From: Candidatus Hermodarchaeota archaeon
Lineage (GTDB): Archaea; Asgardarchaeota; Heimdallarchaeia; Hodarchaeales; Hodarchaeaceae
NCBI GenBank assembly: GCA_048886185.1
Contig: JBHLKY010000004.1
Span: forward strand, 90,001 to 122,000
DNA: 32,000 nucleotides
Direction of reading: 5' to 3'
The position numbers and the translations under genes were made by a program. The stretch's first letter is position 1. Every line of letters begins with the position of its first letter. Below are positions 690 through 24,101 of the stretch, in pieces. The notes beneath the pieces are model-generated. The model was not told the origin of the DNA, did not search any database, and saw only the letters and a list, made by a program, of their open reading frames with translations.

Positions 690-3287
690 TTACACTGTAA
701 AAATATTCCAATCATTGTCTAATTGTTCCATTCTATCAAGAATAATCTCAAAATTAATTAAAGCATCAATAGGGGTAATTCGATCATTTTCAATGTCTGC
801 GATTAAATATAAATTTTGTTGAGCATTCATATAAATCGAATTTGTATTATTGTTAGTTATATCCCCTCTAACCAACTCTTGCCAATTCTCAACAGCACTC
901 TCATTTAAGAGTTCCCCTTTAACATTTGTGAGATTCTCATAAGTGCTATTGGCACTAATTTGAGACAGAGTAAAATTATTTATAGCATTATCAGGTTCAA
1001 AGAGTCCCCCCTGAATAGTGGCTGTTAGGGTTTCGTTAAAGCTATATGAACCCAATGAAAAATATTTTATTGACTGAAGTGTGCCATTTAATGCTGAAAC
1101 GTATTGATCTGCAAAATTAATTCTCGAAGAAGCAGAATGAGTAAAATCTTCTAAGTCATCTAGTAGGAAATTGAGTTCATCAAGCTCCTCAAACTCAATA
1201 TATTCTTGAGAATCAATAACCGAACTCATATTTTCCAATCCTATTTTTGCTTGCTTTAAATATTCAGAAGTGTCATTTAATCCAATATCGATGTTGTTCC
1301 AACGAGGATCGAGAACGTTTGAAGAATTTGAGAAATCTATTGCTTGAATTTCGATAAGTGTGTTGTTTAATGACTGAAACATGTAGTTCGTATTCTTTAA
1401 TGAATATAAAAGATATTTTGTAATCTGATGTAAATTAAGGCTAAAAATAGTCAGATCACGGAATGGGATCACTGATCTTTTGGGTAAACTCTCAACATCA
1501 ACGTTTCTCATTGCTAATGAGGCATTATAATCTTTTTCAGCTTCTATAAGAATTCTTGATTTAAAATCAAATTTATTAAGGCTATCAAAGACTAAACTGA
1601 GCTTATAGGTACTATTTATCCATGGAACTATTCCAGAAACGACTGTAATTAGAATCGGTAATCCAATTTCGAGTTCAGAAAGCAAACTGGCCATTTCATC
1701 GAAAACGGAATAATTAAAGGTCTCCTGTACTTCACTTAAAAGGGCTAAAATTGGATCTTCAATGGTTGTTAGATTATTTACCCCATGTTGCATTAGTTTT
1801 AGTGCCTCTCTCATCTCAGCATCATATTCTTGGAAAAAACTTGATCCAAGACCTTCTTGGTAGGAGCTTTCAATAGAATTAAGTAAAATATCAAAGCTCT
1901 GATTCATTCCTAATTGAAGATTATAATACCCCCATAAAATATTAGAAAAATAGGGTACGGTATTAGCTAGCACTGTTGTTAGGGTTAATATCTCAGGTAA
2001 GTCTTCTAAGGGGATTCCAGCCACATCAGGCACTAAATAAGGTAGAATATAAGCTATCAAAGGATTTTCTCCGAATTGTCTAAATGAATTACCTGCTTTT
2101 GCTAAATGTTCTTGTGCTGATGCAATCAGTGCCTCAAGTTCCTGAAAGGTCGAATTGAGGTTTGTAATATATTTTGAAGAAAACATGTCTGTCATTTCTA
2201 GAAGACCGATACTCGCGTGAAGAGTGCCCTCTGATCCTTTTCCAAGAGCATGGTAAGTTAATGGAATAGTTATGATAGCAATGAGAAATAGAGCTGCGAA
2301 AAGTACTCTCAATGCCGTTGCACTTTTCCACTTCCTCTCTGATATCATAAAAAGGCCTGAAAGTCCGACTCCAATGGAGAAGGGGATCAGTATTATAATA
2401 ATACTATCAAGAAAGGGAACAATTACCTGTAAAAGCTCAATTCCTAGAAATACTTCTCGCCCAAGTTCAGATATGACTTCCTGTCTTTTTAGAATTCCTA
2501 CCAGATTCTGGCGAGAAATATTGTTAAAAATCCCCCAAGGATTAATACCACCCTCAAGAAATTGGATATGAATGAAGATTTCAATTAATAGATAAGTTAC
2601 AAATACTGAGATAACGGAAAGCGGAGCATATCTTGTTGACCTTTTCACGGCAGGATATAAGCACCATAATATTGCCAGGACTGCCAAACTCAGTACATAA
2701 CCAATCATTGTGTCTAGAATTTGTGTTGGTAAAATAATAATCATAATTGTAGGTAAAATAATACTTAAAGAAAAAACAATAATCTGACCTTCCACACTGT
2801 CTAGGAAAGAAACGAAAGTCTCTCTTTTTGTTAATTCAACAATGTTTGATGCATGATAAACGGTAGTGATTTTTCCGAGGCCTTTAACGGATGGAGAATC
2901 GGGTTTGATTATTTGAACTAAAACACTTAGTAATACATCGCTACCAAGATAATTATATTGCGAATCGATCCCTTCAAGGACTAAGTGTTCAAAAGATTGG
3001 CGGAAAATTAAGGAAATTGGGCCAATTTTCCCCATCACAAGCATTAAAATATGGATTTCTTGATTCTCATTCAATTCAGAGGTTCTTTTAAATTTTAAAT
3101 CTGTTAACATTCCTGAATGGAGAGTATACTTATTCTCCTCTCCATGAGACTGTAATGCTCGTAAGAATTTATCTTTGGGGAAATTAGGAAATTCCTTAGT
3201 CTTATCCTTCATGGGATTGACAAGAAATTGAAAGTGTTCTGCTCGGCCACCAGCCTGTAAGTTGAAGCTAATTTCCCATTCATCCAT
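690..3287 (-). CDS. Uncharacterised 5-TM membrane glycoprotein with ~170-aa N-terminal soluble domain and ~500-aa helical C-terminal ectodomain
   Basis: 865-aa ORF with ATG start. Five hydrophobic segments at about aa 170-345. I count 17 N-x-S/T sequons after the last TM and 1 in the TM3-TM4 loop. No family recognised. Confidence 0.8.
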   Translation of the reverse strand: MDEWEISFNLQAGGRAEHFQFLVNPMKDKTKEFPNFPKDKFLRALQSHGEENKYTLHSGMLTDLKFKRTSELNENQEIHILMLVMGKIGPISLIFRQSFEHLVLEGIDSQYNYLGSDVLLSVLVQIIKPDSPSVKGLGKITTVYHASNIVELTKRETFVSFLDSVEGQIIVFSLSIILPTIMIIILPTQILDTMIGYVLSLAVLAILWCLYPAVKRSTRYAPLSVISVFVTYLLIEIFIHIQFLEGGINPWGIFNNISRQNLVGILKRQEVISELGREVFLGIELLQVIVPFLDSIIIILIPFSIGVGLSGLFMISERKWKSATALRVLFAALFLIAIITIPLTYHALGKGSEGTLHASIGLLEMTDMFSSKYITNLNSTFQELEALIASAQEHLAKAGNSFRQFGENPLIAYILPYLVPDVAGIPLEDLPEILTLTTVLANTVPYFSNILWGYYNLQLGMNQSFDILLNSIESSYQEGLGSSFFQEYDAEMREALKLMQHGVNNLTTIEDPILALLSEVQETFNYSVFDEMASLLSELEIGLPILITVVSGIVPWINSTYKLSLVFDSLNKFDFKSRILIEAEKDYNASLAMRNVDVESLPKRSVIPFRDLTIFSLNLHQITKYLLYSLKNTNYMFQSLNNTLIEIQAIDFSNSSNVLDPRWNNIDIGLNDTSEYLKQAKIGLENMSSVIDSQEYIEFEELDELNFLLDDLEDFTHSASSRINFADQYVSALNGTLQSIKYFSLGSYSFNETLTATIQGGLFEPDNAINNFTLSQISANSTYENLTNVKGELLNESAVENWQELVRGDITNNNTNSIYMNAQQNLYLIADIENDRITPIDALINFEIILDRMEQLDNDWNIFTV

Positions 3288-3412: not shown

Positions 3413-3466
3413 ATAGTTTTAGCCCTTTTTTTGAGTAAGTACTGCCTACATTGGAGTTGCTGAACA

Positions 3467-3997
3467 TTGTCTAAAGATAAGAAAGCGAAAGGAGGCAAGT
3501 TTGCCTTCAAATTATTGTTAGTCGGGGAACCTGAGGTTGGGAAGACATCATTGATAAAACGGTATGTTGATAATTTCTTTAAGGAAGGATACCAAATTAC
3601 TTTGGGAGTCGATTTCCTTTCTAAAACTGTTTCGATAGACGACAGGGAGCTTACTTTCCAAATTTGGGATGTCGCTGGGCAATCAGGATTTACCAATTTT
3701 CGTCATTTGTACTTGAAAAAAGCACATGGAGTTTTCTTAGTCTTTGATTTGACACGACCAGACCTTACATATGAAAAATTAGATCGATGGCGAGCTGATA
3801 TAAAAGAACAGAGTCCAAATGCTAAGGTTATTATTCTTGGTAATAAGGAAGATATAGCTCAAGGAAAATTACCTGCAAGCAAGGATGAAATCTTGAAAAG
3901 ATTTGAGGCTGAAGAATTCTTTGAAACCTCCGCTAAGACTGGGTCTCGAGTTCAAGAAGCTTTTCTTCAAATGGGTCAATATATACTAGGAGAATAG
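3467..3997 (+). CDS. Rab-like small GTPase (Ras superfamily)
   Basis: G1 GEPEVGKTS, G2 YQITLGVDF, G3 WDVAGQ, RabF-like YLKKA and LVFDLT, G4 NKED, G5 ETSAK. TTG start. No C-terminal Cys prenylation motif. Confidence 0.95.
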   Translation: MSKDKKAKGGKFAFKLLLVGEPEVGKTSLIKRYVDNFFKEGYQITLGVDFLSKTVSIDDRELTFQIWDVAGQSGFTNFRHLYLKKAHGVFLVFDLTRPDLTYEKLDRWRADIKEQSPNAKVIILGNKEDIAQGKLPASKDEILKRFEAEEFFETSAKTGSRVQEAFLQMGQYILGE

Positions 3998-4001
3998 TGA
4001 A

Positions 4002-4796
4002 ATGGTCTCGTTTGATGAACTAGAGACATTCCTAGCTTTCTTTGTGTTTCAAATGAAAGGAGGGAAACCGTTAATCGAGAAAGAATTCCGGAGTACAAAA
4101 GAAGCTAAATCCTTTCCTACTACTATGATATATTCACTCTTAAATTCTGCCTATGATATCTCACAAGGATTAGAGGAAGAGTCCATTGAAGAAGGTCAAT
4201 TGTTTCATGTAGATTTTGCTTCAATGCGTATCGCAGGTATTATTAGACCAGAAGGGCTTCTTTTTTCACTTATCTCCTCTTTATCAGCCTCAATACTTGA
4301 CATTGAATTCAAATTACGGACACTTATGACTTTATTCTTTGGAAATTTTTCCGATAAATTATCTAAGAAAACAATACGATTATCAGGTGTTGAGAAAGAG
4401 ATGTTTGACGAATCAATTCAGACAGTTATGACTGGGGAATCACGATACATGAGTGAATCCATGAAAAGAGAAGTAGAAGAGCACATAATTGCATGGATTA
4501 TTAGTGAAGATTCAATTAGGGGAGCATGTGTGTCTTCTTTTACTGGCGCTATTATTGTGAATAAGATGGATATAGAAATTCTCCCTTCTGCTGTACGTGC
4601 TATTCGTGGAGCATTTGCAGCACAATTAGAGAAACCAAGGTTCTTTCTCACAGTATCTGGTGATTCCAATATTTTTGTATATATTATTGGAGAAGGCTTG
4701 TTGTTACTTGTAGATTCAGATCCAAAATCTTCACCTGCCAATACTATTGGTTTGGTTGAGTGTATAGTTGAAGAACTAAGGAATCTAATTCTATAG
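4002..4796 (+). CDS. Putative longin-like + roadblock/LC7 two-domain protein
   Basis: N-terminus FLAFFVFQMKGGKPLIEKEF resembles the longin/AP-sigma beta1-beta2 opening, and the domain ends with the longin-like LRTLMTLFFGNF...FDESIQTVM helices. C-terminal ~115 aa follow the roadblock helix-beta-beta-helix-beta-beta-beta-helix pattern (IRGACVSSFTGAII...NIFVYIIGEGLLLLVDSD...IVEELRNLI). Starts 4 nt after the GTPase stop. Confidence 0.65.
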   Translation: MVSFDELETFLAFFVFQMKGGKPLIEKEFRSTKEAKSFPTTMIYSLLNSAYDISQGLEEESIEEGQLFHVDFASMRIAGIIRPEGLLFSLISSLSASILDIEFKLRTLMTLFFGNFSDKLSKKTIRLSGVEKEMFDESIQTVMTGESRYMSESMKREVEEHIIAWIISEDSIRGACVSSFTGAIIVNKMDIEILPSAVRAIRGAFAAQLEKPRFFLTVSGDSNIFVYIIGEGLLLLVDSDPKSSPANTIGLVECIVEELRNLIL

Positions 4797-23549: not shown

Positions 23550-24101
23550 TTAAGAGTTAATTATACCTTGTCGGATTAGAATTTCTTTCGTTAGATGGAA
23601 AAAGGCTTCACGTACATTTTTATCGCGATAAGCTGAAGTCTCAAGGTACTTAATTGGCTTAAAATCTGGAATTATATCATCTTCAAGATAACTATAATCT
23701 ATACTTATCATTTCTTCAAGGTCAGATTTATTACCAATTAAAATCTTTGGAATGTACTCTCCAAGTCGTTTGTCGATTTGTTCCTTCCATTCGTATAGCT
23801 CTTCAAGTGTCTCGGGTCTTGTGAGATCGAAAACCAAAAGAGCCCCATTAGCTTTCCTGAAAAAAATCTCCCTTAAAGTTTGGAAACGTTTCTGTCCTGC
23901 AACATCAAAGATAACCAGATTAACAAGAGTTCCATCAACTTCAATTCTACGATTGGTGGGATCTAAGCCCACTGTCAACAAATAGTTGAACTCGAATTTG
24001 TCCTCTACATAACGACGTACAATTGAAGTTTTACCTACAGCACCCGCTCCACAAATAATAATTTTAAGATGAAATTTTGCCTTCTGATCGTCATAGTTCA
24101 T
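23550..24101 (-). CDS. Rab-like small GTPase (second paralog)
   Basis: G1 GAGAVGKTS, G2 YLLTVGLD, G3 FDVAGQKRF, LVFDLT, G4 NKSD, G5 ETSAY. No C-terminal Cys motif. Confidence 0.95.
   Translation of the reverse strand: MNYDDQKAKFHLKIIICGAGAVGKTSIVRRYVEDKFEFNYLLTVGLDPTNRRIEVDGTLVNLVIFDVAGQKRFQTLREIFFRKANGALLVFDLTRPETLEELYEWKEQIDKRLGEYIPKILIGNKSDLEEMISIDYSYLEDDIIPDFKPIKYLETSAYRDKNVREAFFHLTKEILIRQGIINS

Follow-up and report, generated by a model that had tools for sequence, protein, structure and literature searches.

The cassette and its two products

The window analysed here is a stretch of 32,000 nucleotides from a Candidatus Hermodarchaeota archaeon (assembly GCA_048886185.1, contig JBHLKY010000004.1, positions 90,001 to 122,000), and the element in question is a pair of adjacent genes on its forward strand. 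The upstream gene encodes a Rab-like small GTPase. The downstream gene encodes a protein from a family without annotation, which is predicted to join a longin domain to a roadblock domain and is referred to below as the longin-roadblock (LR) protein. The GC content of the window is low (~0.30-0.36), its DNA occurs in sediment metagenomes, and the closest homologues come from Heimdallarchaeia/Hodarchaeales. The features of the cassette are the following, numbered from the first nucleotide of the window.

3453-3456, + strand: Shine–Dalgarno-like GGAG, ~10 nucleotides (nt) before the TTG start of the GTPase gene, read from the sequence
3467-3997, + strand: gene of the Rab-like small GTPase, 176 amino acids (aa), TTG start, TAG stop at 3995-3997
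3988-3992, + strand: Shine–Dalgarno-like AGGAG within the GTPase gene, at its 3′ end, ~10 nt before the ATG of the partner
3998-4001, + strand: spacer tgaa, 4 nt, from the GTPase stop to the start of the partner, read from the sequence
4002-4796, + strand: gene of the LR protein, 264 aa, ATG at 4002
4029-4433, + strand: predicted canonical longin domain, residues 10-144, topology bbabbbaa (AlphaFold2 models, structure matches, conservation)
4434-4445, + strand: inter-domain linker motif G-E-S-R, residues 145-148 (conservation; the model's predicted local distance difference test score, pLDDT, dips to 66)
4455-4790, + strand: predicted roadblock domain, residues 152-263, topology abbabbba, with the invariant G182 (structure matches)

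Both open reading frames (ORFs) and the 4-nt gap between them lie exactly where a first-pass annotation of this DNA had placed them. The position of this AGGAG, still within the upstream gene, suggests translational coupling, and judged from the sequence the two genes are probably coupled in this way.

The GTPase matches the Pfam model Ras at 5e-41 and also TIGR00231. In a PDB sequence search its best solved relatives are Rab32, Rab2/Rab2A, Ypt6, Rab10 and Rab1/Rab1B (~1e-30), and the best 60 matches are Rab/Ypt proteins without exception. Its motifs comprise the P-loop GEPEVGKT, YQITLG in switch I, the switch-I threonine T45, DVAGQ, NKED and SAK. In an alignment, the P-loop, the switch-I threonine, DxxGQ, NKxD and SAK are intact and invariant across the cognate orthologues, including the glutamine of DxxGQ (Q72 in the window protein). 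The C-terminal cysteine of a geranylgeranylation motif is absent, since the protein ends in QYILGE, and none is present in any cognate orthologue. The label Rab-like is therefore fair, with the exception of the prenylation site. The GTPases of the window subfamily carry a conserved lysine-rich N-terminal extension, M-S/P-K-K-K-x-K-G-x-K-F-A-F (3467-3511 in the window). This polybasic stretch, which follows the TTG start, is conserved in orthologues. It may serve in place of prenylation, as an element that binds membranes.

The LR protein has no match in Pfam or NCBIfam. Robl_LC7 (PF03259) does not match the window protein or any of the 28 aligned family members at E<=1, and neither the protein nor the family profile gives anything significant against PDB sequences, the best being a Loki profilin on the C-terminal domain (E 1.2). 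The folds were assigned by structure prediction. An AlphaFold2 (AF2) model of the full-length protein, built from the 28-sequence alignment, has a pLDDT of 85.6 and a predicted template-modelling score (pTM) of 0.64; the longin domain was also modelled alone (pLDDT 89.9). According to DSSP, the N-terminal domain in the two models consists of strands 10-17 and 23-28, helix 40-55, strands 67-71, 75-82 and 86-93, and helices 98-115/117-120 and 129-144. The modelled C-terminal domain consists of helix 152-168, strands 172-179 and 184-187, helix 194-206, strands 214-218, 223-230 and 233-239, and helix 245-263.

Structure comparison with VIA-align against 48,161 PDB representatives agrees with these topologies. 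The N-terminal domain (9-147) matches canonical longins at Z 13-14.3, with synbindin, Trs23, Sec22b, VAMP7 and sigma-adaptin aligning over 119-128 residues, and in the full-length model it lands on the longins of VAMP7, sedlin and synbindin (Z ~13). The C-terminal domain (155-264) superposes on the MK-D1 protein Roadblock3 (9jue_D) with Z 15.3 and a root-mean-square deviation (rmsd) of 2.1 A over 110 residues, followed by the Asgard roadblock 7yh1 (Z 14.7), MglB (14.3) and MP1-p14 (13.6). SRX, LAMTOR and the C-terminal domains (CTDs) of Rag proteins are also among the structural matches of the two domains (Z 11-13). As modelled, the LR protein is a canonical longin followed by a roadblock. The first-pass annotation had read the two halves in the same way, and other folds, such as two roadblocks or PAS/GAF, did not appear in structure prediction or fold searches.

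The conservation pattern concerns both domains and the linker. K104, G145 and G182 are invariant across subfamilies, and F16, G21, L47, F88, S97, D100, L111, F112, F135 and R148 are at least 90% conserved. An S-x-x-D-x-x-x-K motif opens the second longin helix and a G-E-S/T-R motif occupies the linker, of which R148 is conserved in 26 of the 28 sequences. R82 is conserved in the window LR subfamily only.

Among eukaryotic signature proteins, the longins, roadblocks and Rab-like GTPases of Asgard archaea are well known, and structures are available for Asgard roadblocks, a longin and a Loki 'Roadblock-Longin'. The solved proteins (PDB 9jue, 7yh1, 7f8m, 8yqg/8yqk) belong to the same superfamily as LR, and a Loki longin domain matches it at Z 11.2, but they are single domains or, in the case of the Loki 'Roadblock-Longin', have the opposite order of roadblock then longin. 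The bacterial MglA-MglB system is likewise a prokaryotic operon, in which a small GTPase is joined by a dimeric regulator with the roadblock fold. However, MglB is a single roadblock without a longin, and the window GTPase has a canonical DxxGQ and finds its nearest solved relatives among Rabs, not MglA. An MglA/MglB identity of the pair was rejected, because the GTPase is Rab-like and its partner carries an additional longin domain.

Distribution of the LR family and its linkage to GTPase genes

An exhaustive homologue search covering 1.84 billion representatives returned only 18 LR clusters, of ~250-270 aa and down to 22% identity. The relatives are 248-273 aa long, and all named database entries are annotated as 'hypothetical protein'. 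The LR profile matches 373 of 400 genomes of the phylum, representing 82 of 85 genera and mostly in several copies. In the tree, the window protein belongs to a clade on a long stem (support 100/100), which is made up solely of its own genus and one metagenomic sequence. The same genome encodes a second full-length LR paralogue on another contig (C19), which belongs to a different clade, is preceded by a 273-aa Ras-family protein and sits in a GTPase cassette of its own.

The pairing of the two genes is widely conserved in the window clade and its nearer relatives, which together provide 36 distinct LR members (loci L001-L045). In 30 of them, the gene immediately upstream has the same orientation and encodes a Ras-type GTPase, with gaps from -14 to +28 nt. 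The exceptions include two genes cut by contig ends and one LR gene that has another LR gene ahead of it in a GTPase-LR-LR operon. Relatives with 25-28% identity, in which all other neighbours are different, keep the adjacency. As the upstream GTPase recurs in 30 of 36 members from unrelated contexts, the pairing is not due to chance. This conserved operonic adjacency, which holds down to 25% identity, supports the functional coupling between the partner and its GTPase that had been proposed from the window alone. On the other hand, none of 21 distant Asgard LR members (mostly family f20) adjoins a GTPase gene, and their neighbours are variable. The linkage is therefore specific to certain clades of a pan-Asgard LR family. 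The lack of adjacency in the distant members agrees with PMC10933270, where it is remarked that the GTPase genes of MK-D1 do not, as a rule, share operons with roadblock/longin genes.

Some loci contain tandem arrangements. The order GTPase-LR-GTPase-LR is found in L044 (G127:C11), and GTPase-LR-LR in L007 (G078:C134; identical to L043), in a genome from the same order as the window. The LR proteins P0077 and P0090 carry consecutive locus tags. LR copies in tandem could supply the two subunits of a heterodimer, as in Mon1-Ccz1. The second copies in L044 and L007/L043 are very divergent and sit on long branches; they may be partners of a Ccz1-like kind.

In the window genome, 52 ORFs match the profile of the cognate GTPases at E<=1e-8, compared with two full-length LR genes. 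One of these GTPase-like ORFs lies elsewhere in the window, at 23550-24101 on the - strand (C4:113550-114107), with E 2.7e-45. Two single-longin ORFs match the LR N-terminal domain (C4:224919-225371 and C1:29792-30286), and longin-like segments also occur within an 873-aa and a 368-aa protein (on contigs C8 and C5). A hexapeptide-repeat protein (LbH / eIF2B-epsilon-like) directly follows the LR gene in the genome's own paralogous cassette (L014, 3805-4521, - strand) and in a distant assembly (L004, 4766-5296, + strand), and may be a third, conserved member of that cassette. In the distant Asgard genome G006 (L050, 3327-3698, + strand), two genes come after an LR homologue, one for a standalone Robl_LC7 protein (PF03259, 8.7e-14) and one 154-aa ORF with no family assigned. 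A giant protein of 3347 aa (P0079) contains 19 stretches that match residues 185-225 of the LR roadblock, which suggests a roadblock-like repeat protein.

Two further genes flank the window cassette. An 865-aa multi-pass membrane protein without a Pfam match (690-3287, - strand) is encoded divergently from the GTPase, an arrangement that is kept in locus L005 of another assembly with a membrane protein of 861 aa. A GH57-type alpha-amylase/4-alpha-glucanotransferase (PF03065, PF09094, PF09095; 4831-6948, + strand) starts 34 nt past the LR gene. This LR-GH57 gene order is kept in L005 and not outside the genus.

Resemblance to tri-longin Rab activators

The domain order of the LR protein is that of the first two domains in tri-longin domain (TLD) subunits of Rab guanine nucleotide exchange factors (GEFs). 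In Mon1 and Ccz1, longin domain 1 (LD1) is a canonical longin with topology bbabbbaa, LD2 is of the roadblock type (abbabbba) and LD3 is of the lamtor type, completed by a linker helix (PMC8833172; Klink et al.). The LR protein shares the LD1-LD2 order and the topologies with Mon1/Ccz1, Fuzzy/Inturned and HPS1/HPS4, and like them it is associated with a Rab-type GTPase. The tandem LR paralogues in some genomes additionally recall the heterodimeric subunits of these complexes. The differences are that LR lacks LD3 and the alpha-X helix, counts 264 aa instead of 400-650 aa, and is encoded in prokaryotic operons. The first-pass annotation had seen in it a single chain combining both module types. 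This stands in so far as a longin and a roadblock are joined, but the combination is not a free mix, as its layout is that of TLD LD1-LD2.

Structural searches with the full-length model point in the same direction. The best 12 Foldseek matches in the PDB are TLD Rab GEF subunits only, ahead of any single-domain match, and comprise MON1A-CCZ1, Ct Mon1-Ccz1, Fuzzy in CPLANE, Fuzzy-Inturned and BLOC-3. These alignments span both LR domains (283-324 columns, E 4.7e-8 to 2.7e-6). VIA-align likewise places residues 8-276 of Fuzzy on residues 9-264 of the LR model, with 221 residues aligned. In the ESM Atlas, the sole nearby eukaryotic multi-domain cluster is FUZ/MON1/HPS1 (TM 0.50-0.56, 173-201 residues, both domains). 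Among the longin models of Pfam, LR members touch only those of TLD proteins when compared by sequence: PF19036 matches 9 of the 28 (best 1.3e-4) and PF19031 one; the best relative reaches 25.2 bits, with a cut-off of 26.1 bits.

Several results weigh against a specific relationship with these proteins. The LR protein stops at residue 264, just past the roadblock, so that LD3 is absent, and the linker between its domains is only ~7 residues long. Fused or three-domain forms were not found in a search for longer family members, which is weak evidence. Taken alone, the LR longin ties with many longins: synbindin (Z 14.3), COPI (13.8), Trs23 (13.7), Sec22b and VAMP7 (13.4) and Fuzzy LD1 (13.0-13.2, over 127-131 residues). 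By the Z scores of its model, it is no closer to TLD LD1 than to the longins of TRAPP, SNAREs, COPI and adaptors. In the two-domain superpositions the rmsd is ~10 A, and the domains of the model are thus arranged differently from those in the TLD structures. The TLD rankings are less specific than they look, since any longin-plus-roadblock chain gathers score on TLD proteins. Every Pfam TLD match is below threshold and the window protein itself gives none. When PF19036 was searched against the whole genome, other ORFs ranked above the LR genes, and PF19037 gave no match. As these reverse searches fail to single out the LR genes, the sub-threshold matches are a weak hint only. In sum, the LR protein is TLD-like in its architecture, while its membership of the TLD family is unproven.

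Of the other longin-based GEFs, the TRAPP core (Bet5/Trs23, TRAPPC1/C4, sedlin) offers the best single-domain matches to the N-terminal domain (synbindin and Trs23 among them), and its longins form a heterodimeric platform that is a Rab1 GEF. However, TRAPP longins are single-domain proteins that need Bet3-type partners and have no fused roadblock. For DENN and folliculin, no Pfam match was obtained at E<=1 in the 28 LR members and no such cluster appeared in the ESM Atlas searches. This bears on a conserved Asgard operon described by Liu et al., in which a LAMTOR1-like roadblock protein and a Rab-like GTPase are encoded together with a 'DENN' protein proposed as a GEF. That operon may overlap the GTPase-LR cassette, wholly or partly. 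Unlike it, the GTPase-LR loci show no DENN signal in structure or Pfam searches and no consistent upstream roadblock gene. In a literature search, no work was found that ties Asgard proteins to Mon1/Ccz1, Fuzzy or HPS1.

An evolutionary scenario can be attached to the shared layout, although we regard it as tentative and somewhat doubtful. The Asgard LR family would be the direct prokaryotic ancestor of the TLD Rab GEFs (Mon1-Ccz1, BLOC-3 and Fuzzy-Inturned), which would later have gained LD3 and become activators of the Rab7/Rab32/Rab23 group. The scenario draws on a di-longin that is already paired with a dedicated Rab-like GTPase, and on the presence of tandem paralogues and YK-containing substrates (see below) in some lineages. 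If it is true, the core of endolysosomal Rab activation predates eukaryogenesis.

Possible functions of the LR protein and their significance

For the pair, the folds, the domain order, the conservation of the family, the operonic linkage and the intact GTPase motifs are established. The function that we favour, with a confidence that is about evenly balanced, is that of a dimeric platform regulating the cognate GTPase, probably as a GEF. The LR and GTPase genes would be co-transcribed, as predicted from their operonic layout. Two LR copies would then join, longin to longin, and form a platform, presumably a homodimer in the window genome and a heterodimer where two LR copies sit in tandem. 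This platform would dock onto the cognate GTPase at its switch regions and control its nucleotide state, most probably by promoting the release of GDP. Co-folding of two LR chains with one GTPase gave a score of 0.42, compared with 0.41 for a control with an unrelated chain 1.

The switch-I region of the GTPases gives a mixed picture. TLD GEFs remodel switch I such that a lysine or arginine following a conserved tyrosine enters the nucleotide pocket, as in the YK motif of Ypt7 (Y37-K38) and Rab23 (Y38-K39), and stimulation of Rab23 is lost on mutation of either switch-I residue (preprint 10.1101/2025.03.27.645700). In the sister-subfamily cognates, YK is found in 8 of 13 sequences, versus 5 of the 38 Ras-like GTPases of the genome, a rough comparison, and one that counts related, non-independent sequences. 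For part of the LR family, exchange of the TLD type is thus plausible. Other observations speak against a GEF function. The window GTPase has Y42-Q43 at this place, and YQ, not YK or YR, is invariant in 16 of 16 subfamily orthologues, so the TLD mechanism cannot apply to it unchanged. The GTPase of the LR paralogue has YS at the motif. Finally, the near-invariant R148 in the conserved flexible linker would suit a GTPase-activating protein (GAP) as well.

As a GAP, the roadblock/longin platform would bind the GTP form, in the way of MglB on MglA or of the FLCN, NPRL2 and SMCR8 longins, with the linker arginine acting as an arginine finger that complements the catalytic glutamine of the GTPase. 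We consider this unlikely. The high conservation of R148, the invariance of G145 and the flexible linker loop in which they lie would fit, as would the DxxGQ of the GTPase, which could accept an arginine finger. Moreover, MglB, which matches the LR C-terminal domain at Z 14.3, is a roadblock GAP, and FLCN/SMCR8-type longins that carry an arginine finger have been described in Heimdall archaea (PMC12290439). The known longin GAPs (FLCN-FNIP, GATOR1 NPRL2/3, C9orf72-SMCR8) and their Heimdall look-alikes also have an N-terminal longin followed by a second domain, and act on small GTPases. GAP longins are, however, marked by an adjacent 'GP' motif (PMC12290439), and no such Gly-Pro precedes strand 2 in LR, where the turn between strands 1 and 2 reads G21-K22-P23 (G-x-P, or G-x-T/L in relatives). 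The second domain of LR has the roadblock fold instead of a DENN or NPRL2-specific one, and no FLCN, SMCR8 or NPRL2 chain is among the best matches, with the Lst4 longin (Z 10.6) as the exception. A non-catalytic role seems to us just as improbable. LR would then be a scaffold, effector or membrane adaptor that localises the GTPase or relays its state, in the manner of Ragulator, the Rag CTDs, SRX-SRbeta or Rsg1 on Fuzzy. Longin and roadblock dimers are often passive platforms (PMC3747258, PMC10933270), and SRX, LAMTOR and the Rag CTDs are indeed among the structural matches. The GTPase, with its polybasic N-terminus and without a lipidation site, may also need help with its localisation. Yet when each paralogous GTPase shares a tight operon with an LR gene of its own, a dedicated regulator is the more typical case, and the enrichment of YK in the sister-subfamily cognates points to an exchange mechanism.

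It is also conceivable, but very improbable, that the adjacency reflects conserved gene order only and that LR has a target different from the GTPase encoded next to it. The distant LR members, with their variable neighbours and no adjoining GTPase, speak for this and against a GEF function, and the MK-D1 remark of PMC10933270 fits. Where the adjacency exists, however, it has outlasted a full turnover of the flanking genes and divergence to 25% identity, and it holds for both paralogues of one genome, with gaps in the range given above.

A dimeric regulator, probably a GEF, would be of interest beyond this locus. Asgard archaea encode dozens of small GTPases, as illustrated by the 52 Ras-like ORFs of this genome, together with many longin and roadblock proteins, and the two groups can rarely be matched from gene order, according to PMC10933270. 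The cassette represents a dedicated one-to-one pair of GTPase and regulator in Hodarchaeales, an order that ranks with the nearest relatives eukaryotes are known to have. The LR protein would be a two-domain, TLD-like regulator encoded in one prokaryotic operon with a Rab-like GTPase, and the only other proteins seen with this LD1-LD2 layout are the TLD Rab GEFs, the activators of Rab7, Rab32/38 and Rab23. Since both proteins are small and look soluble, they form a tractable pair for asking whether Rab activation by TLD-type or longin platforms arose in Asgard archaea, before eukaryotes.

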